IMG/VR virus record: IMGVR_UViG_3300012943_000386
Coordinates: 37,662-101,661 of that record
Source of the DNA: a virus
Taxonomy: Duplodnaviria; Heunggongvirae; Uroviricota; Caudoviricetes
Reading direction: 5' to 3' (one strand)
DNA: 64,000 nt
Both the position numbers and the translations under genes were made by a program. How positions within the stretch are numbered: position 1 is the first letter of the stretch; each line of letters starts with the position of its first letter. Positions 5,251 through 40,905 of this stretch are shown here, piece by piece. Below the pieces are notes generated by a model that saw only the letters and a list, made by a program, of their open reading frames with translations, was not told the DNA's origin and made no database searches.

Positions 5251-6168
5251 TTAGCACCTCGACAAAGAGATGAAGCAGGCAGCGAGGTTTATTTCCGTGT
5301 CAGCGCAGAGCGCATGTGAGCGGAGGTAGTCTGCAATCGTGATGATCGCTGTCTCCTTGTCCTTCACCTTCAGCTTGTCGATGTTCTGGTAGAGGAACGT
5401 GTAGACGTCCTCGTGCTCTTCACGGGTGGCCGTTTCGCAGACGAGCTTGCGAGCGGTCTTGAAGTCGCCGTTCGCGATGGTGTCCAGAAGACCGAGCTTC
5501 CAATCTGAGACTGTTGCTCCTGACGCATGAGGTGCCAGCAAATCCCCATTGTGAGAGTTCTGCTGGAGAAGCTGAATGATCTGACGAACACTTGGGTAGC
5601 CGAGGTCGATGTAGGTAAGGAGGTGATCTACCTCGAAGCCAACGCCCTCGGTGCCGAGAATTTCAGACGCGAGGAGCGCGACCTTGTCCTTGTCTGGAGC
5701 CCTGAAGTAGAAGCGCTGAAAGCGATCCTTCAGTGGTGGGATGACCTTGTTCTCGTAGTTGCAGGTGGCAATGAAGCGGCAGGTCGTTGAGGCCTGTTCG
5801 ATGAGACCGCGCAGCAGCGCCTGGCCATCGAGTGATAGGTAGTCGAGCTCTTCGAGCTGCACCACCTTGAACTTACCAAGCGGCATGGTCATTGCGAACG
5901 CGTCAACCTTACTGCGCATCGCGTCGATCTTGTCCTTGGAGCAGTTGATGCGGATGACGTCAGCACGGTCTACACCGAGGTCATTGATGAGCGCCTTGGA
6001 AACACTGGTCTTGCCAGTTCCCTGGATGCCAGTCATGAAAAGGTGTGGAATGTCACCATCAGCAACAAACTTTTCAAACTGCTTTTGCTGGCGCTCGTCC
6101 TGAAAGATGACGTCCTTAATGGACTTAGGACGATACCGCTCAACCCAAATCGATGGCTTCATTGTCAT
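5251..6168 (-). CDS. sliding-clamp loader large subunit (T4 gp44 / RFC small-subunit family AAA+ ATPase)
   Basis: RFC box ERYRPKSIKDVI, Walker A GIQGTGKTS, DEAD-like LEELD, SRC motif ATCNYENKVIPPLKDRFQ. ATG at 6166-6168. Confidence 0.85.
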   Translation of the reverse strand: MTMKPSIWVERYRPKSIKDVIFQDERQQKQFEKFVADGDIPHLFMTGIQGTGKTSVSKALINDLGVDRADVIRINCSKDKIDAMRSKVDAFAMTMPLGKFKVVQLEELDYLSLDGQALLRGLIEQASTTCRFIATCNYENKVIPPLKDRFQRFYFRAPDKDKVALLASEILGTEGVGFEVDHLLTYIDLGYPSVRQIIQLLQQNSHNGDLLAPHASGATVSDWKLGLLDTIANGDFKTARKLVCETATREEHEDVYTFLYQNIDKLKVKDKETAIITIADYLRSHALCADTEINLAACFISLSRC

Positions 6169-6221: not shown

Positions 6222-7391
6222 TCAGCGCTCAGTGTAGCGCGTTGTGATCGCTGGTGGCGCTTCAATAGAATTGAGCGACATGACAACGTCTGCCCTACGC
6301 GCGTCAATGTGCTCAAGTGAAGAGCGTGGCGTCTGAAGCTGTGGCAGCGTGATCACATCTCGTTCAGCATCCTCACCCTTCTCTTCAGGAAGAGCAGGAC
6401 GAGAGGTTGACGCCGTGTACTCTTCAACGACTGGAGCTGGTGTGTCGAGCGGCATGTCATCAGGAACCTCAACAGTTGCGCCACCCGGGTGTGGGCCAAA
6501 AAAGATGTCCTTGTCACTATCAGGTGAGTATGCAGCTAGCGTGTCCATTCCTGCTGACAGCTCATCAGCATCAAAGCTTGATTTGAGAACAGCATCTGGA
6601 TCGGCGGCCTTCTCAACCTGTTCCTTGTAGTATTCATCTGTGGTGCCAGTCGTCGTCGTCATCAGCGGGCCTGTGACCTCGCCAACCACCATCACCGGCG
6701 CTGCAGGCTCGGGCTTCTTCCTACGTTCAATGAGGAAGTTACCGGCGATCAGCAGCACGATTGCAAACGGGTCGAACACGAAGATGATCGTGAGGATGAC
6801 GTATTTGACCGCCTTCTCAGGGGTGGTGTTGAACGCCTCAGCTACATAGAGGATTGGGCCGAGGTCAGCGCTTTGTTTGACGTTGGCAGACTTCAGCTGT
6901 GGAAGCTGCACATCAATTTCAACAAGGCGCTTGTTGATCCTATCTGTTTCAGGCGCGAACTCCTGCATTAGCTGGCGCCGCGCACGAGCATAATCAGCAG
7001 GAAGGTTTGCGATCTGCTTATCGATTTCCTGCTTGCGGGCCTGCAGCTTTGTCTGTTCACCCTCAAGCGATGTGATGATGATCGTGTCTTGATTGTTCGT
7101 GACGATGGCGTGCTGGAACTGCTGTGATAGGTAGCCGAACACACCAGTCGACGTGATGAGCATGAGAACCGCCGTCGCCGGGATCATGAACCCCTTCATC
7201 AGCAGCTTGATGTCCTTCCAGTACTTGTAGAGGAAGGAGACGCCAGCGACCTTACCAATGTCCAGCGCGATGGCCATCAAGATGATGACCGGGTTCATGT
7301 TGAAGAGGTGACCTAGGCCGGCGACGCTGATGTAGGTACCAATGCCTTCAATGAACAGAGCTGCAAATAGAACGAGGGCGATGAAGAACAC
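6222..7391 (-). CDS. membrane protein with 4 N-terminal TM helices, central coiled coil and acidic C-terminal tail
   Basis: Hydrophobic N-terminal 130 aa, heptad-like middle, D/E/P-rich tail. Confidence 0.55.
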   Translation of the reverse strand: MFFIALVLFAALFIEGIGTYISVAGLGHLFNMNPVIILMAIALDIGKVAGVSFLYKYWKDIKLLMKGFMIPATAVLMLITSTGVFGYLSQQFQHAIVTNNQDTIIITSLEGEQTKLQARKQEIDKQIANLPADYARARRQLMQEFAPETDRINKRLVEIDVQLPQLKSANVKQSADLGPILYVAEAFNTTPEKAVKYVILTIIFVFDPFAIVLLIAGNFLIERRKKPEPAAPVMVVGEVTGPLMTTTTGTTDEYYKEQVEKAADPDAVLKSSFDADELSAGMDTLAAYSPDSDKDIFFGPHPGGATVEVPDDMPLDTPAPVVEEYTASTSRPALPEEKGEDAERDVITLPQLQTPRSSLEHIDARRADVVMSLNSIEAPPAITTRYTER

Positions 7392-8143
7392 TAGACAGCT
7401 CCAATATGCTTGACGATTTCGGGCAGCACGTCAGCGGCTCTACCCTTTGCGAAAATGTAGTTCTTCCCAACATCACCGCAGCCAGAAAGATATGGCTTGA
7501 GATTTACCTCGACAACCTGCGCGCCGCGATTGAGCGGACCAATGACTAGGTCGGCGGCTGGAAATACGTTCAACGATGTTCCAACCGAAACGACAACGTC
7601 GGCATCCTTTGAAAAACCGATGGCTTCCATGAGGGCAGCAGGTGAAAGGTTTTCGAAGAACCATGTGATGCTTGGGCGGAGGTTTTCACTGCGACATTTT
7701 GGGCAAACAGGAACGCTCTCATTGACCCAGAGGTTTTCCTCAGTGGTGTAATCACACGTATCGAAGTTGATGCCGAAGCACTGAAACTTTGCGATGTTTC
7801 CATGAAGCTCGACGAGCTTCTTACTTCCAGCGGCCGCGTGAAGACCGTCAACGTTCTGTGTTGCTAGAAGGAATGGAACACCTTCAGCTTCACAGCGCTG
7901 CTCAATCTGAGCGATGGCAACATGACCGGCGTTTGGCTTGGCACCTGAGTAGGAAAGATAGCGGTCGCGATAGAACTTCCACACGAGCTGTGGGTCCTTC
8001 TGAAACGCCATAGGCGTGCAGACATCTTCAACGCGATGACCTTCCCATAGACCACCGTCTGTTCGAAAGGTTGGTAGGCCCGAGTCGGCCGATAGGCCGG
8101 CGCCGGTGAAGATCAGAACACCCTTCACTTTGACATCTCGCAC
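7391..8143 (-). CDS. Sir2-family NAD-dependent protein deacylase (CobB-like sirtuin)
   Basis: GAGLSADSGLPTFR NAD-binding motif, catalytic His in VELHGN, Zn ribbon CFGINFDTC...CPKC. Confidence 0.85.
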   Translation of the reverse strand: MRDVKVKGVLIFTGAGLSADSGLPTFRTDGGLWEGHRVEDVCTPMAFQKDPQLVWKFYRDRYLSYSGAKPNAGHVAIAQIEQRCEAEGVPFLLATQNVDGLHAAAGSKKLVELHGNIAKFQCFGINFDTCDYTTEENLWVNESVPVCPKCRSENLRPSITWFFENLSPAALMEAIGFSKDADVVVSVGTSLNVFPAADLVIGPLNRGAQVVEVNLKPYLSGCGDVGKNYIFAKGRAADVLPEIVKHIGAV

Positions 8144-10316: not shown

Positions 10317-10534
10317 TCTAGCTCCTTGTCAAGAAAATCAATTGCGAGTAGTCGTTGTGAAAGTTCAGCCTTCAACTGCTCAAGCTGCCATTCACCCCAC
10401 GGTGTAAAGAACCCATCGTAATCATCGCCTTTTGACGCTTCGATTGTCTCAGTAAGCAGGTCATTATTTGAAAGACCCCAAATGCGGTTTTGCTCACGCT
10501 CTGCATTAAGCTTTGACGGCTTTTTCTTTTTAGT
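10313..10534 (-). CDS. hypothetical protein (~73 aa)
   Basis: ORF track 10313..10639 trimmed to MTKKKKPSK. Its ATG overlaps the stop of the DnaE-like N fragment (ATGACTAA). Confidence 0.45.
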   Translation of the reverse strand, partial: TKKKKPSKLNAEREQNRIWGLSNNDLLTETIEASKGDDYDGFFTPWGEWQLEQLKAELSQRLLAIDFLDKELE

Positions 10535-11069
10535 CATGAAAGAATTCTTCCATTGCAATGCCATACTTGATCGGATCGACCTTGTGCAGACCGATAATGA
10601 ACAACACCAACGACGCGCACGAAGAACCACGGCCAACACCCCATACTGTCTTCGTCTCTTTTAGGGTGTCGATGACATAGATGAGCGTTTTCACCAACGG
10701 ATCCATGCCGCGAATTTGAATTTCTTCAAGCTCAACCTTCACTCGCTGCGCGTACTTTGCTGTTGTCTCGTAATCCCAGCGCTGCGCTAATGCCATTGTT
10801 CCAACGGCGTCGAGGACGTAGTTGGCAAGGTCAATATCTTGGTAGCTTTTCGGAACCTTCCACGCCATGTTGAGTGGACGGTTCTTGTCCTTACCTACCG
10901 TAAGCTGCTCCTCAGAAAACTGGTTGAACTGTCTCGTATCCTCACTCTCCTCATTGAGGGCGATGAGCTCTGGAGGGATACCGCCCAGGAAAAGACTTGG
11001 GACCAGCGCAGGATTTACCTGGCTGGTCCCATCGAACCACAGCGTTCTGTCGTTGAGCTCGGTCTTCAC
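10530..11069 (-). CDS. DnaE/PolIII-alpha-like palm domain, N-terminal half
   Basis: C-terminus VWGVGRGSSCASLVLFIIGLHKVDPIKYGIAMEEFFHD matches DnaE [34 protein letters not shown]. Ends exactly where PDIDIDF begins in the other fragment. GTG start at 11067-11069 coupled to the upstream stop. Confidence 0.7.
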   Translation of the reverse strand: MKTELNDRTLWFDGTSQVNPALVPSLFLGGIPPELIALNEESEDTRQFNQFSEEQLTVGKDKNRPLNMAWKVPKSYQDIDLANYVLDAVGTMALAQRWDYETTAKYAQRVKVELEEIQIRGMDPLVKTLIYVIDTLKETKTVWGVGRGSSCASLVLFIIGLHKVDPIKYGIAMEEFFHD

Positions 11070-13218: not shown

Positions 13219-14901
13219 TTAGACCCTGATGGTCATCTTCATGGTGTCGAGGTGAATTCCGACCCTGTCGGTTTCCCTGAACTTCGCGAGCGCCTTTGGG
13301 ATCATCAGCACCGTGCAGTTCTGTTCGCGTCCTACTACCGCCAGGTGGGCGAGCTGCCCGCCGGTCTGGCAGATGAGGAGACCGCGGTCACCTCGCTCGT
13401 CCTCGCGGTTGGCGCTGATCATCGCGAGGTAGTACTTTGGTCCGGCGTTCGGCGCGATGGCGATGCTGCCCGGCGGAACTTCTTGATCTGGCTTGGCGAA
13501 CACGACGCTGCCGTACGCGTACGTTGTGTCGCCTTTCGCGAGGATGGAGAACTCAACACCTGTCCACTCTTCCACAAGATCGTGCTTGGCGCTGAATGAA
13601 GCATCGCGCACGCGCTCAGCCAGCGGGATGGCTTTCTTGTCCTCGGCATCAAAGTCGCGACCATACGTTTCACTCAGCGGGATGCCGGCACCGAGCATCC
13701 AGTCGGTGTGGTATGGATCGTCCATCGGCAGCTTCCAGCCGGAACCAGCGACGCATGGCCACTCGGGCTGAACCTTGCCGAAGTCTGCAAAGCGAAACCC
13801 GCGGAGCGCCCAGTTGATGAAGGCGTTCTTCGGCACCTTGATGAACGGTGGATCGTAGTCTGGGCAGTCCTCGTCGGTAAGCTTGAGCTCGTACCAACCG
13901 CCGATCACGTCGGCTTGGGCGCGAACGCGGTTAGCGTACATCTCTTCGATGTTCGTGCGAGCCTTCTTGAAGGCTTCCTCTCTCATGTCCCATACATCGT
14001 GTGGGACCGCATTCGTCTGCTCACGGGATTTGGTGAGGTGTGAGAAGGCATCCTCGTACTTCACCTCGACGGCGCGGATGGCAGCTGTATCTGCGGCCGC
14101 ATTGATGTCGATGATAAACTGCTGCGTCAGCTCACGTGACCTGGTGGCGATCTCGCGCTGCGTAAGCTCAACATCATCGGCACCTTCGTATTCCTTGGGA
14201 ACCGGTTTGGTACGTGATGGCTTGCGGTTGCTGATCGGCTCAAACACTGGCTCGACGTCGGCAGATCCGCGCTCAGAAAGGCTTAGCTTCTTGGCCTTGA
14301 TGAGGGCGTTGAGGTGCGCCACTGGGTCGTTCATCGGAACGTCAATCCAGATTGGCGGCATCGGTGCCTTCGCGCACAGCACGTCGGAGATTTCCTCAGG
14401 GCTGTTGTTGAGGCAGACAAGCATGTCGCTGCCATGGTTGTCAGCGTAGAAGAGGCTGCGCAGCGCGCCATTGGCGAAGCGGCTGTTGGAGCGAATGTCA
14501 CCGTTGATGATCAGGTACGGTCCCTGGTAGGAGCGCGCGAAGTCCATGTCCTCCTTGCACCAGCCCTGCACTGAAGCGTATGGCTTCCAGTAGTGATCCT
14601 TGTACTTGAAGGTGGTGCCATACGTGTAGTCGAGCTGCTTCTTCATGTCCTTGGCAACCTTACCTTTCGGTGAGAGCGTCTCCCAGCTGAGGGTGCTGTT
14701 CGGGTTACCAATCTCGGCATTGCCGACGAAGTTGGCCTCGCCCTTCAACAGCTGGATTGCCTGCTCATACGTGACGCCAGTGTCGTCGACGAGCATCTTG
14801 ATTGCTCGCTCCCACTTACCCTCGATGACCATCGTGCGGGCGAAGTCAGAGAGAAACCCACCGTCAATCGTAAAATACACGCGCTTGGCTTCAGCGTTCA
14901 T
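13219..14901 (-). CDS. large protein with C-terminal PEP-utilising-enzyme mobile (phosphohistidine swivel) domain
   Basis: C-terminus GSVVFAKPD...PGSIAIAPNAGPKYY...GLLICQTGGQLAHLAVVGREQNCTVLM...GIHLDT matches the swivel domain of PEP synthase/PPDK/rifampin phosphotransferase, including the His in the GGxxSHxAIVAREL position. N-terminal 450 aa unassigned. Confidence 0.7.
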   Translation of the reverse strand: MNAEAKRVYFTIDGGFLSDFARTMVIEGKWERAIKMLVDDTGVTYEQAIQLLKGEANFVGNAEIGNPNSTLSWETLSPKGKVAKDMKKQLDYTYGTTFKYKDHYWKPYASVQGWCKEDMDFARSYQGPYLIINGDIRSNSRFANGALRSLFYADNHGSDMLVCLNNSPEEISDVLCAKAPMPPIWIDVPMNDPVAHLNALIKAKKLSLSERGSADVEPVFEPISNRKPSRTKPVPKEYEGADDVELTQREIATRSRELTQQFIIDINAAADTAAIRAVEVKYEDAFSHLTKSREQTNAVPHDVWDMREEAFKKARTNIEEMYANRVRAQADVIGGWYELKLTDEDCPDYDPPFIKVPKNAFINWALRGFRFADFGKVQPEWPCVAGSGWKLPMDDPYHTDWMLGAGIPLSETYGRDFDAEDKKAIPLAERVRDASFSAKHDLVEEWTGVEFSILAKGDTTYAYGSVVFAKPDQEVPPGSIAIAPNAGPKYYLAMISANREDERGDRGLLICQTGGQLAHLAVVGREQNCTVLMIPKALAKFRETDRVGIHLDTMKMTIRV

Positions 14902-15768: not shown

Positions 15769-17370
15769 TCACTTCTGTTCCGAGGGAGCGGGCACATCGA
15801 TCAATTCTGACATCGCGCGGGTTATGGCGACGTACTCGAGATTGCGCTCCTGCTCCATCTGCCATTCCTTCTTGGCGTACGGAGAGGGCATGTACTTGGA
15901 CCGGCCAAGCAGGTAGACGCGTTGCCACTCACGACCCTTCGACTTGTGGACCGTGGAGAGCGTGAGCACCTTCGGCTGTTCGCCGTCTGGGGTGTTGCCG
16001 AACATCGTCTCGATGTCGGTGACCAGATCATCAATCATGTTCTTCTTCTGCAGCAAGCAGCGGTTGATCACCACTCGCAGGCAGTCGAGCTGGTCGACAA
16101 GGCGATCGAGCTTTTCTTCTTGACCCTTGGCGATGAACTTGGCGGTCTGCTTGGTCTGGAAGTCCTCAAGGCGGGTGAGCAGTTGATCGAGCGTCTTCAG
16201 CTTCCAGCGCCGTGCCAGCTTGATCAAGCCCGTACCAATTTCGCGACCTTCAACTCGGCAGGCGATGCCCTTCGCGATGAGCGTGTAGGCAGTCGTGACG
16301 AGCGGGGCCGTGTTGCGACAGAGGATCGCGTCGTTCTTGTTGAGCTGCTCAGCCTCAAGGCTGTCATACTCGATGGCGCGAACAACTCCCTGAGGAGCAT
16401 CTTCGTGAGCGACAAAGTCTGGAACTAGCCGCTTGGCCTGTTCAACCACCAGCTTAGGGCAGCGGCGAGTGACGTTCAGCGGGAGCGTGATGCCTTGGAC
16501 AGCTTCACGCAGCTGCGTCATTGAGTTGCTATCGGCTCCAGTGAAGCCGTAGATCGCCTGAGCAGGGTCGCCGACCAGGATCATGCGGCCGCCGTTCTTG
16601 TCGAGCATTGCCAGCGCGAGGGCGCGGCGAGCAGGGTTTGTATCTTGGGACTCGTCCACGAGCACCCACTTCTTCGGCCAGAACTTTGCCTTGAAGTAGA
16701 GCGGCGCGAGGATCATGTCGTCGTAGTCGATGACTTCGCGGCAGAGGCTGAGCGACCGCTTGTAGAGGCGGATGGCGATCTTGATGATCGCGAGTGGGTC
16801 AACGTCCTCAGTTACGTCGTCTTCAAGACCGAAGTGGTCCCACATGTCCAGCCATACCGACGTGTCGTCGATCGAGCCGGTGTAACCAAGGGCCCGCTGC
16901 TTTGCAAGGCCGCAGAGGCGCACGAGTGAAGCCTCGTTGTCGCTGATGAAGCGACCTTGCTCGTCTTCGCCATCTGAGAAGTAGAAGTTCTGAAGCTCTT
17001 TGACGAGGTTCCACATCTTGTCGTTGTCGACATTGACGTGAGGTGAGACCTTGCGCCATGCGCCGAAGCCGAATGAGTGGACCGTTCCAGCCATTGCCTG
17101 CTTCCAATCCAGCCCGAGTTCAGTAAGCTTGGCCTTGAGTTCGTCGGCGATCTTCTTGTTGTACGCCATCAGCGCAACATCGCCAAGTCCGCATGCAGCG
17201 ATTGCCTGCACGACCCTCATAAGAGTGAAGGTCTTGCCGCAACCGGCTCGAGCGAGCAGTTCGAGACTGCCCTTACCTTCAAGAACCCATCGAACTACAT
17301 CGATCTGCTGGTCAGAAAGAACGATGCCGTCCTTCTTGAAAATCTTCACAACTTTTTGCAACAGCGTCAT
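15769..17370 (-). CDS. UvrD/Rep-family SF1 DNA helicase
   Basis: Walker A AGCGKTF, VLVDESQDT, ILVGDPAQAIYGFTGAD, VTRRCP, LSTVHKSKGREW. ORF track extends to a GTG at 17424. ATG at 17368-17370 has an ideal GGAGGA RBS. Confidence 0.85.
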   Translation of the reverse strand: MTLLQKVVKIFKKDGIVLSDQQIDVVRWVLEGKGSLELLARAGCGKTFTLMRVVQAIAACGLGDVALMAYNKKIADELKAKLTELGLDWKQAMAGTVHSFGFGAWRKVSPHVNVDNDKMWNLVKELQNFYFSDGEDEQGRFISDNEASLVRLCGLAKQRALGYTGSIDDTSVWLDMWDHFGLEDDVTEDVDPLAIIKIAIRLYKRSLSLCREVIDYDDMILAPLYFKAKFWPKKWVLVDESQDTNPARRALALAMLDKNGGRMILVGDPAQAIYGFTGADSNSMTQLREAVQGITLPLNVTRRCPKLVVEQAKRLVPDFVAHEDAPQGVVRAIEYDSLEAEQLNKNDAILCRNTAPLVTTAYTLIAKGIACRVEGREIGTGLIKLARRWKLKTLDQLLTRLEDFQTKQTAKFIAKGQEEKLDRLVDQLDCLRVVINRCLLQKKNMIDDLVTDIETMFGNTPDGEQPKVLTLSTVHKSKGREWQRVYLLGRSKYMPSPYAKKEWQMEQERNLEYVAITRAMSELIDVPAPSEQK

Positions 17371-17396
17371 CAGCATGTCCTCCAAGATGGAGCCAT

Positions 17397-17424
17397 CGTA
17401 TACTGAATTCGCGCAAAAGTACAC
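17397..17424 (-). promoter_or_regulatory. early promoter variant GTGTAC-N16-TATACG upstream of helicase
   Basis: Minus strand; about 20 nt leader to GGAGGA and ATG 17370. Confidence 0.3.
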
Positions 17425-17464: not shown

Positions 17465-17764
17465 TTAGTAGAGGTGGGCTAGAGAGCGGACGTAGCAGCT
17501 ACCATTCAAGCGGTGGTAGAGCATGCACCACTGGTGTCCTTTGTTTTGGCGTGCCACGGTCACTGAGGCTTGCTCATCGCAGCCCGTACACCAGTGGTAC
17601 ACCTCTAAAAGATTTTTCGGAACATCGTCAACGCGCTCTGTGTAACAGAACACGCACTTCATCTGCACTCTGTCTTTTGGAATTCGTGCGAAAAAGTCTA
17701 TCACTTCCGACACTGCTCTTCCTCTATATTGAGAACACTCCAGTTGCATCGCCAAATTTTTCAA
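17465..17764 (-). CDS. hypothetical Cys-rich protein (99 aa)
   Basis: CVFCYTE...CTGCDEQ zinc-ribbon-like. Overlaps the end of the DUF1552 gene by 40 nt. Confidence 0.35.
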   Translation of the reverse strand: MKNLAMQLECSQYRGRAVSEVIDFFARIPKDRVQMKCVFCYTERVDDVPKNLLEVYHWCTGCDEQASVTVARQNKGHQWCMLYHRLNGSCYVRSLAHLY

Positions 17765-18971
17765 GCTCTACACCAGCCTTCTGCGCCATCGTCAGTAGGA
17801 TGTTCGCGTGTGGTGTATCCTTGGGCAAGGCGAGATGTTGATTGCCCTTGATACCACCGCCATGCCCAGCGATGAGCTGTGGTAGTGGATTGTTGTTGTG
17901 TAGATCGCTGTTAGCCATGTTCGAACCGAATAGGATAATTGAGCTGTCAAGGATGGAGCCACCGGCTTCCTTGGTTTCAGCAAGGCGCTTGATGAAGCGC
18001 GCGAAGCGCTCAGTGTGGTAGGCCTGCACTCGCACAAGTTTCTCATGCTTGCTAGGGTCCTCACCATGATGTGACAGTGGATGGAAGGCCTCGTCAACGT
18101 TGATCGTTGGATAGGTGCGCATACTCGCTTCCTTCACCATGCGCATCGAAGCAATGCGGGTCTGGTTCGTTTGGAAAGCAAGAGCAATCATGTCGAACTG
18201 AATGTCAAGCAGCTCAGTGAAGTCGTCAGGTGTACCAACTGGCGCGTTAGGCAGTTCTCCAAGTGAGCCCGCTTTCGCAATCAGCTTCTGCATGCGCAGC
18301 TCTACCTCGCGAACGTTCTCGAGGTAACTATCCACAAGAGCACGGTCTGCAGCACCCAACTTGCCGCTCAGGCTCTTGCTAGCCTCTGTGACGTAGTCAA
18401 GCAATGAACCAGTTGCCTGTAGGCGAGCGATGCGGTCAGCGTTGTTGTCACCAGCACCGAACATTGTGTAGAAGATCTTGCGAGGGTTGCCCTCAAGCGG
18501 GAGACCACTAGAACCGCGGTAGCTGATTGAACCACCTGGCTCGCCGCAAAGCTCAAGCGATGAGAGAGGTGTTGACTGGCCGATCTGCTTTGCAGCTATT
18601 TGATCGATTGTGGTACCATCGGTTGTGCGATCATCTGGGTTCTTGCATGAGAGCCAGGTCTGCTCAATGATGCCATGTGGGTTGGAGCTCTCGCCTGGCT
18701 TGTTGCGGAGGCCGCTTATCACGGTAATGTGCCCGCGTTGGCTTTCAAGCGGCTTGAGGATTGGAGAAAACTCGAAGTTGGTTCCAACCGTCTTAGGCGT
18801 CCAGAACTGCTGCACGGCCCCGTGTGGGAAATAGACGAAGGCTAGGCGAGATTGGGATTGTACGCTGGCACCAAAGGCTGGAACCATTGCGTCCAGCAGC
18901 GGCAGTGATATAGCAGCTCCTGCACCCTTGAGAACGGTGCGGCGGGAAAGCGCTTTCTTCGTAAGGTACAT
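17724..18971 (-). CDS. Tat-signal DUF1552-family protein (host-like, function unknown)
   Basis: MYLTKKALSRRTVLKGAGAAISLPLLDAM is the characteristic DUF1552 twin-arginine N-terminus. ILKPLESQRGHITVISGL and later blocks fit the family. Confidence 0.65.
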   Translation of the reverse strand: MYLTKKALSRRTVLKGAGAAISLPLLDAMVPAFGASVQSQSRLAFVYFPHGAVQQFWTPKTVGTNFEFSPILKPLESQRGHITVISGLRNKPGESSNPHGIIEQTWLSCKNPDDRTTDGTTIDQIAAKQIGQSTPLSSLELCGEPGGSISYRGSSGLPLEGNPRKIFYTMFGAGDNNADRIARLQATGSLLDYVTEASKSLSGKLGAADRALVDSYLENVREVELRMQKLIAKAGSLGELPNAPVGTPDDFTELLDIQFDMIALAFQTNQTRIASMRMVKEASMRTYPTINVDEAFHPLSHHGEDPSKHEKLVRVQAYHTERFARFIKRLAETKEAGGSILDSSIILFGSNMANSDLHNNNPLPQLIAGHGGGIKGNQHLALPKDTPHANILLTMAQKAGVELEKFGDATGVFSI

Positions 18972-19274: not shown

Positions 19275-19698
19275 CGACCGCTGGTTGCTTATCTGTTGCC
19301 TCGCGAATTAGAGTTCCAAGCACTAGATTGTATGGAATGCCAGATGCCCGGCAGGCCTGTAGAAGTTCAAGCTGAGATATTGCTAGCTTAACCGGCCCAT
19401 CTGTTTCAAGTTTCACTTCAGCTATTTCACTACCTAAGCAACCATCACACGCGTAGTTGAAATGCCGACCCGCCTTGATGTCGTGATTTTCGCGGATGAC
19501 ATTAGCAACCATGTCTGGCCACGGCATCGAGCTAAGCTCTGGTTCTTCAACCCACGGTAGGCCCACTTTAGCGCTTGCCCACTGAATGAGAAGTGGCTCG
19601 GCTACTCTCCCGTGCGCCGCTTTCCACGGGTCGCGGCACCCGCTTATGGGGTTCTTAAAGCAGAAGTCGACTTTATCAATTGGAAGTTCAAGCATCAC
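19186..19698 (-). CDS. hypothetical protein (170 aa)
   Basis: ORF track. Sits between the DUF1552 and Thg1-like genes. Confidence 0.45.
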   Translation of the reverse strand: MMLELPIDKVDFCFKNPISGCRDPWKAAHGRVAEPLLIQWASAKVGLPWVEEPELSSMPWPDMVANVIRENHDIKAGRHFNYACDGCLGSEIAEVKLETDGPVKLAISQLELLQACRASGIPYNLVLGTLIREATDKQPAVVAPIGIVDLCSGSYLNGYEVLVSRVRAVV

Positions 19699-20519
19699 GC
19701 AAAGAGCGCTCGCGCCCTGGTATCGTTCTTGATGTAGCCAAGATCCATGTTCACCACGCTGGTGCGCGCAACTGGGCCGGACGGACGATACTTCTCTGGG
19801 ATTTTCGCGAGCTGCTCTGCTGAGATTGGCCTCATCTGCGTTTCGCGACGAACGAACGTACCGCTCTTGAAGAACGTTGGCTCATCTTCCCACGGCTTGT
19901 TGAGCTCGCGCAGCAGCTGCTTCTTGCTCTCACTGTCCACCGCGTGAAGGCGCTTGTGCGAGAAGTGCGCCTGCGCGGCCATCGAGATGGAGTTTTTGAT
20001 CGCGTCATCCTGGCGCCAGAGGAAGTTCAGGAAGGCCTCGTGCTTTGTTGGCACGTTCCACACACGGCAATCGAACATTGCCAGCTGGTCAGCCTTTTCA
20101 GGGATGCGCTCAGGCAGGTAGCGCGTGAAGTAGGCGCTCGCCATAGCGGCGAGTACCGACGTCAGCTTCTGGATTTTGCCGTCGAAGAGGTAGGTGCTTT
20201 CGGCCGCCGGGTCATCGTTCCACCATACGAGGCTGATCTCGTCAGACTGAGTGTAGCCAACGCGTGCGTGCGTCTGCTCAACGAGGTACCTCGCGGTGTC
20301 GATCATGAGGCTGCTTAGGCGCACGTCGTACGGACGCGGCAGACCACGGGTGAAGGTGTGGAACGCCCGGCCATCGAGGCGAGCCATGAGAGGCGCACCG
20401 TGGTCGGCGCGACGGCCAGCCTCAACTTGCTCTTGCTGCTTGAGGCGATCGCCTAGGCTGTCTTTGGAAGGGGTCTGTTCGACTTCATTCATGGGGCTCA
20501 CCGATAGATTAGACCCCAT
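19695..20519 (-). CDS. Thg1-like protein (tRNA-His guanylyltransferase family, 3'-5' nucleotidyltransferase)
   Basis: MARLDGRAFHTFTRGLPRPYD (Thg1 VRLDGRNFHKF), GYTQSDEISLVW (YGQSDEYSF), FDCRVWNVPTKHEAFLNFLWRQDDAIKNSI and the C-terminal block align with Thg1/TLP. ATG 20517-20519. Confidence 0.7.
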   Translation of the reverse strand: MGSNLSVSPMNEVEQTPSKDSLGDRLKQQEQVEAGRRADHGAPLMARLDGRAFHTFTRGLPRPYDVRLSSLMIDTARYLVEQTHARVGYTQSDEISLVWWNDDPAAESTYLFDGKIQKLTSVLAAMASAYFTRYLPERIPEKADQLAMFDCRVWNVPTKHEAFLNFLWRQDDAIKNSISMAAQAHFSHKRLHAVDSESKKQLLRELNKPWEDEPTFFKSGTFVRRETQMRPISAEQLAKIPEKYRPSGPVARTSVVNMDLGYIKNDTRARALFA

Positions 20520-28462: not shown

Positions 28463-29566
28463 TTAGACGTTCCACTGGCTAAGGCTGTCGTTGAGAACGC
28501 GATTGACGCGAACGAAGGTACCACACTTCGCCATGTCCTTAAGGCGACGGGCTCCAATGTAGGTGCAGGCGCTACGAATGCCGCCGAGGATCTCCTCAGC
28601 TGTCTTGCTAGCTGGTCCCTTGTATGGGACCTCAACGACCTTACCTTCACTGGCGCGGTAGTTGGCCTTGCCGCCATAGTGCTTGTCCATGGCAGCGCTC
28701 GATGACATGCCATAGAAGCGCATTTTCTTCTTGGCGATTGCTGCAGCAAGCGGCAGAAGCTGTGGCGGCATATCCTTCACATCACCAATCTCGGAGATGA
28801 TTTCACCTGCGCACTCATCATGACCGGCAAAGATGCCACCGGCCATGAGGAAGTCTGAACCAGCAGCAAAGCCTTTGGCAAAGTCACCAGCGTTCACGAG
28901 ACCACCATCACCGCAGATCTGACCGTCCACCTGATGCGCCGCATCCTGACATTCGATAATGGCGCTAAGCTGCGGGTAGCCGACACCAGTAAGCTTGCGC
29001 GTTGTGCACACGGAGCCTGGACCGATGCCAACCTTGACGATGTCAACTCCACGCTCAATGAGGTCATACACCGCGTCAGGCGACACAACGTTGCCAGCCA
29101 TGATGACAGCTGAGGTTTCGTCCCTGAGCCTCTCTACGAAGTTGACGAACTTGCGCGAGTAGCCGTTGGCCACGTCCACGCAGAGGAACTTGAGCATCTT
29201 GCCCTGCTCCGCGAGCCGCTGACTGACAGCATTGAATTTCTCAGTATCCGCGTCGGCTATCCCCATCGAATAAAAAGTGTGTGGGTTTGCATCGGCTGAG
29301 CAGAAATAGTCTACCAGCTCATCGGCCGAGTAAAATTTGTGCAGCGCCACGCTCATATGATAGGAAGTTAAGGCCCGCGCCATTTCCATCGTGCCAGGGT
29401 GGTCCATGTTGGCGACGATGATCGGCATGCCGGTGTAGTCAACCTTCGCGTGCTTGAACTTGAATGTCCTTAACACGTCAACCTTTGAGCGACTGTCCAG
29501 CGTTGAGCGCTTTGGGACAAGCAGGACGTCTTGGAAGTCGAGCTTGATGTCTTCGACGATTTTCAT
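28463..29566 (-). CDS. guaC: GMP reductase (IMPDH/GMPR family without CBS insert)
   Basis: Near-collinear with E. coli GuaC: IVKVGIGPGSVCTTR, GVGYPQLSAIIECQDAAH, FYGMSS, GGIRSACTYIGA. Confidence 0.85.
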   Translation of the reverse strand: MKIVEDIKLDFQDVLLVPKRSTLDSRSKVDVLRTFKFKHAKVDYTGMPIIVANMDHPGTMEMARALTSYHMSVALHKFYSADELVDYFCSADANPHTFYSMGIADADTEKFNAVSQRLAEQGKMLKFLCVDVANGYSRKFVNFVERLRDETSAVIMAGNVVSPDAVYDLIERGVDIVKVGIGPGSVCTTRKLTGVGYPQLSAIIECQDAAHQVDGQICGDGGLVNAGDFAKGFAAGSDFLMAGGIFAGHDECAGEIISEIGDVKDMPPQLLPLAAAIAKKKMRFYGMSSSAAMDKHYGGKANYRASEGKVVEVPYKGPASKTAEEILGGIRSACTYIGARRLKDMAKCGTFVRVNRVLNDSLSQWNV

Positions 29567-37577: not shown

Positions 37578-37686
37578 CCTCGATGACCAGCTGGTTCACA
37601 GCTGACGCGTCAATCGACTTGATCTTCCGACCCTTGAGCACCTTGAAGGCGTCTTCGCGGGCGGACTTCTTTCGCTTCTTGGCCAT
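37489..37686 (-). CDS. hypothetical protein (65 aa)
   Basis: ORF track. Confidence 0.3.
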   Translation of the reverse strand: MAKKRKKSAREDAFKVLKGRKIKSIDASAVNQLVIEDDSGNVYEIDAYTDGHGVPYLTISKFIPD

Positions 37687-39525: not shown

Positions 39526-40905
39526 TTACGCGGTTGGTGTGTTTTCCTTTCCACTCGTGGCCTTACCGACCGCGACGAGCTTGTCAAAGATCGCAGCGCC
39601 AGCAGGGGTCTGCTTGAGGGCCTCGATCATTCCACCAATGTTGGTGCCACCCTTCGTGGTAAAGAGGTCCATGAGGCTCTTCACACCGCCGCTGACGTCG
39701 CCTGAATTTGCGATGACCTTGAGGTCGCCCTTGGCAAGAGCTTCTGCCTGCGCGATACCGACGGCCTGGTCCTTCTCGACGGTCTTGACACCAATGAGGT
39801 ACTTCTGGTAGCCATCGTTCGAACCGATCTCCTTGGCGAGCGAGATCTGCGTGTCGACTGGGGCCTGCATGATGGCGCGCTCAGCCGCACCGCGTGCAAT
39901 ACCTTCAGCCTCGATACCCTGGGCGTTGAGCTTGGCCTTCTCGAGATCGCCCTGAGCGATTGTGATGGCAGACTTCTTGTGACCTTCGGCCTCGATGACC
40001 TTGGTCTGAGCTTCCTGCTCGGCGACGACGATGCTGACGTCCTTGTTGATTTCGGCCTGGCGAACTTCGTTCACCTTCTTGACGGCCATGTCCTTCTCAG
40101 CTGTGGTCGCCTCTTCAGACGCGATCTGCTGCAGCGACTTCTGCGCTGCGATACCGACCTGCTGCTCCTTCTCGGCAGTACGGATACCGACCTGCTGCTG
40201 AGCTTCCTGATCGCGAAGCTGAACGGTCTGCTTAGCGGCAATTTCTGCCAGCTCAGCTTCACGCTTGTTGTTCGCCACCTGAACGCGCGACTGCATTTCG
40301 ATTTCCGACTTCTTCTTCTCCATGATCTGCTTGATCACCTGAGAGTTGCCGCTGTCGTTGATGTTCATGAACTCGATGTTCTTGACTGTCGTAACACCCC
40401 AATTCTTGAGGTTGTTGTTCACTTCCTGCGTGAACGCTTCACCAAACTCGCTGCGGCCCTCGAGGATCTGCTCGATCTCAGACTTGGCGAGAATTGAACG
40501 GCAAGCGCCCTGCAGAATACCAACGAGCTGAGCGTTCAGCTGCTGGAAGTCGCTGATGCGCTGGGCGGCCAGAACCGCATCTTCAATGCGGAAGAACGCC
40601 ATCACGTCAACAACGAATGGCAGACGACCCTTGTCGTACGCTTCGTAGTCCTTCAGGGTCACCTGAAAGTTGGAGACAGGCAGCTTGATTGAGGTCACGC
40701 CGAGAACCGGCAGCCATGACGGCCATGAATAGTACACGTTGCCTGACTGTTGGTCCTTACCGTAAACGGTGGACTTCTTCTTTGACTGCACGATGTGCAC
40801 GTCATTCGTCGAAACGACGGTACGGAAGCTGATCGCAACGATCAGCGTGATGATCACGAGGGCAGCAATGCCCGCGGTAATCATCCAAACTGGAATACCA
40901 AACAT
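39526..40905 (-). CDS. SPFH/Band-7 (flotillin/YqiK-like) membrane protein
   Basis: N-terminal TM, PHB/SPFH domain, then long Ala/Glu-rich coiled coil with AEAEG-type repeats. Confidence 0.75.
   Translation of the reverse strand: MFGIPVWMITAGIAALVIITLIVAISFRTVVSTNDVHIVQSKKKSTVYGKDQQSGNVYYSWPSWLPVLGVTSIKLPVSNFQVTLKDYEAYDKGRLPFVVDVMAFFRIEDAVLAAQRISDFQQLNAQLVGILQGACRSILAKSEIEQILEGRSEFGEAFTQEVNNNLKNWGVTTVKNIEFMNINDSGNSQVIKQIMEKKKSEIEMQSRVQVANNKREAELAEIAAKQTVQLRDQEAQQQVGIRTAEKEQQVGIAAQKSLQQIASEEATTAEKDMAVKKVNEVRQAEINKDVSIVVAEQEAQTKVIEAEGHKKSAITIAQGDLEKAKLNAQGIEAEGIARGAAERAIMQAPVDTQISLAKEIGSNDGYQKYLIGVKTVEKDQAVGIAQAEALAKGDLKVIANSGDVSGGVKSLMDLFTTKGGTNIGGMIEALKQTPAGAAIFDKLVAVGKATSGKENTPTA

Follow-up and report, generated by a model that had tools for sequence, protein, structure and literature searches.

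What can a phage protein do with a phosphohistidine swivel domain when no recognisable donor domain accompanies it? The question is raised by an open reading frame (ORF) of 560 amino acids in a 64,000-nucleotide stretch of viral DNA (IMG/VR record IMGVR_UViG_3300012943_000386, positions 37,662 to 101,661), which is referred to here as the window. A sequence-only reading of the window had assigned the last part of the protein to the mobile His domain of phosphoenolpyruvate (PEP)-utilising enzymes, had left the preceding 450 residues unassigned, and had offered nucleic acid ends, a small molecule, an antibiotic-like compound or a host protein as the target of phosphotransfer. In the analysis described below, the swivel domain was borne out at the level of the protein family, and the most fitting description of the protein is an architecturally new variant of the His-swivel phosphotransferases, with a body that lacks structural precedent and a wide distribution in phages. 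The gene and the parts of its product are listed by window coordinates.

13219..14901, minus strand: target ORF, complete, 560 amino acids plus stop codon
14260..14901, minus strand: N-domain, residues 1-214, an alpha/beta fold in the predicted model
13906..14259, minus strand: variable region, residues 215-332, a disordered linker (about 215-243) and then a helical insert, delimited by predicted local distance difference test (pLDDT) scores and length statistics
13552..13905, minus strand: middle region, residues 333-450, predicted to pack with the N-domain as one confident unit
13699..13734, minus strand: K390-L-P-M-D-D-P-Y-H-T-D-W401, the most conserved motif of the family by counts over 142 members
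13222..13551, minus strand: PEP-utilising-enzyme mobile (swivel) phosphohistidine domain, residues 451-560, from PF00391 and profile matches
13345..13347, minus strand: codon of His519, the putative phospho-accepting His in C511-Q-T-G-G-Q-L-A-H519, from alignment and motif

The target gene is clearly real. Its extent and length agree with those first given, and the ORF lies on the minus strand, which the sequence-only reading had not stated; the plus-strand frame across the same positions is full of stops. A purine-rich, Shine-Dalgarno-like stretch, GGAAAGGTGG, is located just 5' of the ATG at 14901, and the start of the gene overlaps the stop of a 64-residue ORF upstream by 11 nucleotides. 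An identical protein (P0001, 100% identity) is encoded on a 198-kb metagenomic contig. Beyond it, 22 homologues were found with E values from 1e-221 to 7.5e-6, many of them on viral contigs of 200-370 kb. The C-terminal peptides on which the swivel had originally been called were found at residues 451-560.

The assignment of the swivel domain draws on the homologues. All 19 full-length close homologues examined match PF00391 (19/19, best E=3.6e-8), and the gathering score of this family is exceeded by the homologues P0020, P0021, P0016 and P0008. When a profile of 142 family sequences was searched against the PDB, the best matches were to the PEP synthases 2ols (E=3.5e-13) and 8a8e (4.5e-13), followed by Geobacillus pyruvate kinase (2e28, 4.9e-12) and Listeria rifampin phosphotransferase (RPH; 5fbs, 5e-12); the corresponding single-sequence search with the 560-residue protein returned noise only and was set aside. 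The family segment tGGklaHLavvgre aligns column for column with GGRTCHAAIIARE, GGRTSHAAIVSRE and GGLMTHGAVIAREYG of those PDB matches, and His519 is therefore the His of the canonical GGxxxH motif. In PEP-utilising enzymes this residue is generally known as the phospho-acceptor. The NCBIfam matches of family members fall on swivel segments only, namely those of PEP synthase, RPH, pyruvate kinase, Enzyme I and DhaM. The C-terminal domain has the swivelling beta/beta/alpha fold and is unbroken in the model, without helical insertion, and the Enzyme I matches are confined to its alpha/beta part. At the family level the sequence evidence is strong that the last 110 residues are homologous to the mobile His domain found in PEP synthase, pyruvate phosphate dikinase (PPDK), Enzyme I and RPH, and sequence, fold and motif alike place the domain in the PF00391 swivel superfamily.

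Residue counts over the 142 members, which are 23-64% identical to the query, show how closely the motif is kept. His519 is retained in 140 of them, G514 in 141 and G515 in 137, and E526 is also conserved; the position proposed earlier as phospho-accepting is thus conserved across the family, not lost. The family consensus around the His is T-E-x-G-G-x-L-A-H, with position 511 occupied by Thr in 70 members, Cys in 30 and Ser in 4. The published swivel signature is T/S-x-x-G-G-x-x-x-H, in which the His is the phospho-accepting residue, and the residue two positions before it (His-2) is a regulatory Thr in PEP synthase, PPDK and Enzyme I versus Met in RPH and in HpeH, a subunit of two-component phenolic dikinases (PMC12167813). 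At the equivalent position 517, the phage family carries Leu (94 members), Met (25) or Val (12), that is, Leu or Met in 119 of 142. Because Leu or Met, and not the regulatory Thr, stands at His-2, the swivel of the phage family is classified, on sequence grounds, as the RPH/HpeH type.

The body that precedes the swivel is conserved in its own right. In the N-domain the residues F10, G14, R22, G54, G60, P107, D118, R148, Y152 and P183 are near-invariant, R22 being retained in 140 of the 142 members. The variable region that follows has pLDDT values below 50 at residues 215-243 and helices at 248-332; its length in the family ranges from 31 to 153 residues, and conservation is seen only at the C-terminal end of its last helix (Q329, A330). 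The middle region terminates in a long helix, residues 427-447, which leads into the swivel domain. It also contains the K390-W401 motif, whose residues are retained in 139 (K390), 141 (D394), 141 (H398), 141 (T/S399) and all 142 (D400) members, and which is kept even in short and rearranged members of the family. We infer that K390, D394, H398 and D400 might form a second active site or a docking site for the swivel. This motif, more conserved than the swivel His, had been missed in the sequence-only reading.

A comparison of the body model with the structures in the PDB revealed no structural relative, and a profile of the body searched against the same database gave only coiled-coil noise within the helical insert. 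Matches to ribosomal protein S20, SMC and ATP synthase b all lay within this variable insert and were rejected as coiled-coil or compositional, and weak matches to a GAF domain did not hold up. The body is not an ATP-grasp, a PEP/pyruvate TIM barrel, an RPH/HpeH substrate domain or a GAF domain. The N-terminal 450 residues, described as unknown at the outset, thus have no structural relative in the PDB detectable by modelling or profile searches. They have been shown to form a conserved, well predicted and structurally unprecedented body with its own near-invariant polar cluster, consisting of K390, D394, H398 and D400 together with R22, D118, R148 and Y152.

These properties separate the protein from each of the known swivel-bearing enzymes. 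PEP synthase and PPDK, the best profile matches, with the His aligned, have an N-terminal ATP-grasp, a C-terminal PEP/pyruvate TIM barrel and the regulatory Thr at His-2, whereas the phage family has none of the three, and the chain of the target protein stops right after the swivel domain. RPH (PDB 5hv1, 5fbs) carries a fused ATP-grasp and HpeH has the partner HpeI, whereas in the phage family an ATP-grasp is neither fused nor detected as a partner; moreover, the family is viral and its body bears no structural similarity to the rifampin- or phenol-binding domain of RPH and HpeH. In contrast to the pyruvate kinases with an extra C-terminal swivel-like domain (Geobacillus 2e28, S. aureus 3t05), the phage protein lacks the pyruvate kinase barrel and the other domains of these enzymes. 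Compared with the N-terminal domain of Enzyme I of the phosphotransferase system (PTS) and with DhaM, the phage swivel lacks the inserted HPr-binding helical subdomain, and no PEP-binding C-domain is present. The protein itself lacks the additional domains by which these classes are defined, and on that ground it does not count as a PEP synthase, PPDK, Enzyme I, RPH or HpeH-type enzyme. To our knowledge, all characterised swivel-His phosphocarrier domains are fused to, or partnered with, an ATP-grasp and/or a PEP-binding barrel.

The architecture is shared by many phages. A profile of residues 1-450 alone matched 1,159 proteins at E<=1e-3, and 419 at E<=1e-30, among 1.84 billion representatives searched. 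Nearly all of these proteins are 440-600 residues long; body and swivel therefore constitute one conserved architecture and a very large family. Homologues were found in all phiCbK-type Caulobacter siphoviruses (gp239), in Brevundimonas phage Bajun, in Caulobacter phage Seuss (gp102, in the early-gene arm), in the Ackermannviridae vibriophages VAP7 and VP-1, and in vibriophages of 57-80 kb. They are mostly labelled 'hypothetical protein' in GenBank, and two are labelled 'PEP-utilizing enzyme'. Neither these existing labels nor the size of the family and its presence in several phage types had been noticed in the sequence-only reading. Literature searches found no functional study of the phage family.

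A few copies occur in bacterial assemblies beside HipA or TnpB, and some architectures are rearranged. In Acidiphilium sp. C61 (L039, 10076-11374) and Pararhizobium sp. BT-229 (L040, 9731-11506), the DDxxHTD motif and the swivel are found close to the N-terminus, ahead of an extension of 240-310 residues without a Pfam match. A HipA kinase and a TnpB/Cas12f-like gene are among the neighbours of the Acidiphilium copy and suggest a mobile element; the neighbours scanned beside the Pararhizobium copy had no Pfam match.

The source of the phosphoryl group was approached by looking for a donor domain or a partner gene. That the protein contains no recognisable ATP-grasp or PEP/pyruvate-binding domain, as read from the sequence initially, was upheld by domain, profile and structure searches. 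The comparative-genomics check for co-occurring partner genes that had been proposed with that reading was carried out on 1,031 ORFs from 38 loci, clustered within +/-10 kb; the target family was present in 30 loci and every other family in at most 4, so that no family is shared beyond close kin. In single-sequence searches of limited sensitivity, which for the target phage covered 64 kb of a genome of about 198 kb, tblastn with the ATP-grasp of E. coli PpsA against 50,697 records found 11 phage records with no carrier phage among them, phmmer for an ATP-grasp or PEP-binding domain gave best E values of about 0.2-0.8 over the complete 85-kb Seuss genome, the 64-kb window and the partial loci in all frames, and Pfam PPDK_N matched none of the 30 larger window ORFs scanned. 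The PADLOC defence-system models likewise gave no meaningful match.

These searches bear directly on an alternative in which the protein is one half of a two-component dikinase, an HpeH-like subunit made of an acceptor-binding body and a swivel that is charged by a separate ATP-grasp subunit, the latter being encoded in another part of the phage genome, diverged beyond detection, or derived from the host. Such division of labour has precedent in HpeH/HpeI, CreH/CreI and phenylphosphate synthase (PMC12167813), and the order of body and C-terminal swivel is the same, as is the Leu or Met at His-2, which recalls HpeH and RPH. The coverage of the window also leaves room for it, at 64 kb of the roughly 198-kb genome, but no gene family co-occurs within +/-10 kb in the 30 loci, the PpsA ATP-grasp searches with tblastn and phmmer and the PPDK_N scan of window ORFs found no partner at single-sequence sensitivity, and the body shows no homology to the domain with which RPH and HpeH bind their substrates. 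Of the alternatives considered this one survives best, and it is regarded as unlikely.

The preferred reading, for and against which we find the balance about even, is that the protein may be a phosphohistidine-swivel phosphotransferase that works on its own, has a new catalytic body and belongs to a phage-specific family. In the proposed mechanism, His519 would be transiently phosphorylated, the swivel domain would swing on its flanking linker (helix 427-447), and the phosphoryl group would be delivered to a substrate bound at the K390/D394/H398/D400 site. A parallel is seen in RPH and HpeH, in which the acceptor is bound by the domain that directly precedes the swivel; HpeH, which consists of a swivel and a substrate domain without an ATP-grasp, by itself catalyses phosphotransfer between substrates (PMC12167813). 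Because neither an ATP-grasp nor a PEP-binding barrel nor a conserved partner gene was found, the donor would either bind to the novel body, in which the N-domain would take the place of the ATP-grasp of RPH, or be a host PEP-utilising enzyme acting in trans. DNA and RNA would be less likely acceptors than a small molecule or a protein, given that the non-swivel modules are all net acidic (median charge -5 to -6). The acidity of the body argues weakly against nucleic-acid ends as the target, and the data single out none of the four candidate targets put forward initially. The location of the gene among replication and nucleotide-metabolism genes, and that of its homologue in the early-gene arm of Seuss, suggests that the protein acts in host takeover or in nucleotide or metabolite handling.

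A further-reaching version of this reading, which we consider possible but rather doubtful, would make the body a new enzyme fold with its own donor and acceptor chemistry at K390/D394/H398/D400. The family would then represent a fourth class of His-swivel phosphotransferases, after the ATP-grasp/TIM-barrel dikinases, Enzyme I and the RPH/HpeH kinases, with which phages of many lineages would phosphorylate a metabolite, signalling molecule or protein of host or phage origin. If this holds, a possible use would be the inactivation of an anti-phage small molecule or immune signal.

Several observations weigh against a stand-alone phosphotransferase. The 560-residue protein alone matches PF00391 only marginally (E=0.097, 12.7 bits, with a gathering score of 23.1), and because of this the swivel call is not acceptable from that protein by itself. 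In the motif, Cys511 replaces the usual Thr or Ser. An N-terminal ATP-grasp (PPDK_N) is absent from the protein, and in the body there is no P-loop or Rossmann motif and no recognisable donor-binding motif. The model of the body was built with an engineered deletion of residues 215-311. Finally, the swivel-like domain of Geobacillus pyruvate kinase retains GG-x-TSH, and since that enzyme also keeps the motif, retention of the His motif is not proof of catalysis; we know of no demonstrated phosphocarrier role for the Geobacillus domain.

The extra C-terminal domain of the Geobacillus and Staphylococcus pyruvate kinases is understood as non-catalytic, and the phage swivel-like domain might equally be a regulatory, ligand-binding or oligomerisation module, with any chemistry residing entirely in the novel body. 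Yet His519 is kept in 140 of 142 members, across sequences that share as little as 23-30% identity, along with G514, G515 and E526, a pattern of conservation typical of catalytic residues, and a non-catalytic domain is accordingly held to be improbable. Least probable of all is a phosphoryl interceptor or decoy that docks on the catalytic domains of host Enzyme I, PEP synthase or PPDK, drains or blocks phosphoryl flux or diverts phosphate to a phage-specific acceptor, and rewires host carbon or PTS signalling: donor domains and a phage-encoded partner were indeed not found, the spread over unrelated phage types suggests a universal host target, and PEP-utilising enzymes are to be expected in Caulobacter and Vibrio, on which cultured carriers grow, but the large conserved body with its near-invariant polar cluster resembles an enzyme active site, not a decoy scaffold.

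The window is a segment of a T4-like myovirus, in which gp32, UvsX, UvsW, the large terminase, the tail sheath and gp15 were recognised and essentially all genes lie on the minus strand. The target gene stands among genes for dCMP deaminase, a UvrD helicase, a Thg1-like enzyme and ribonucleotide reductase; the small ORFs and the UvrD-like helicase reported around it in the sequence-only reading were found again, with small ORFs flanking the gene. The neighbours of the target gene vary between loci, and the small ORFs directly adjoining it are conserved in the closest relative only. On a 331-kb viral contig (L004/L005, 1922-9810), the genes around the homologue encode a DNA ligase, a Metallophos phosphoesterase, an HNH nuclease and an RNA ligase, a set reminiscent of nucleic-acid end repair; this arrangement is not kept at other loci. 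Other genes of the window are as follows.

15769-17424: UvrD helicase, in the neighbourhood of the target
17724-18971, minus strand: 415-residue protein with a twin-arginine signal and a full-length DUF1552/HXXSHH domain (Pfam E=3.7e-74)
19695-20519, minus strand: Thg1-like gene of the tRNA-His guanylyltransferase family (Pfam E=2.3e-27), two genes upstream of UvrD
7391-8143, minus strand: Sir2-family protein (Pfam E=6e-40)
10530-11069, minus strand: 179-residue ORF matching only positions 9-95 of the DNA polymerase III alpha NTPase-domain profile (E=7e-13)
28463-29566, minus strand: IMPDH/GMP-reductase family gene (E=1e-59)
39526-40905, minus strand: SPFH/Band-7 protein (E=5e-16)

The DUF1552/HXXSHH domain is characteristic of bacteria of the Planctomycetes type, and finding it in a phage would be unusual. 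Contigs of Planctomycetota and Phycisphaerae metagenome-assembled genomes (L036, L037) also carry homologues of the target, and together with the DUF1552 protein these may hint at the host. The Thg1-like gene could serve in tRNA 5'-end repair by the phage or as a 3'-5' polymerase. The Sir2-family gene adjoins an AAA+ clamp-loader-like gene (5251-6168) and a 389-residue ORF without a Pfam match (6222-7391), the 179-residue ORF may represent a truncated or split part of a Pol III alpha-like gene, and the IMPDH/GMP-reductase and SPFH/Band-7 genes both lie within the T4-like replication and structural region.

The family to which the target protein belongs comprises more than a thousand sequence clusters and extends over T4-like myoviruses, phiCbK-type giant siphoviruses, Ackermannviridae and small vibriophages. 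Such breadth across phage types implies a generally useful phage function, and this large family probably carries out a hitherto undescribed phosphotransfer reaction. Cultured and genetically tractable carriers exist in phiCbK and Seuss on Caulobacter and in VAP7-like phages on Vibrio. Knowledge of the donor and the acceptor would extend a well-studied enzyme superfamily by a new branch, and the family could reveal a new route by which phages manipulate the metabolism or immunity of their hosts.
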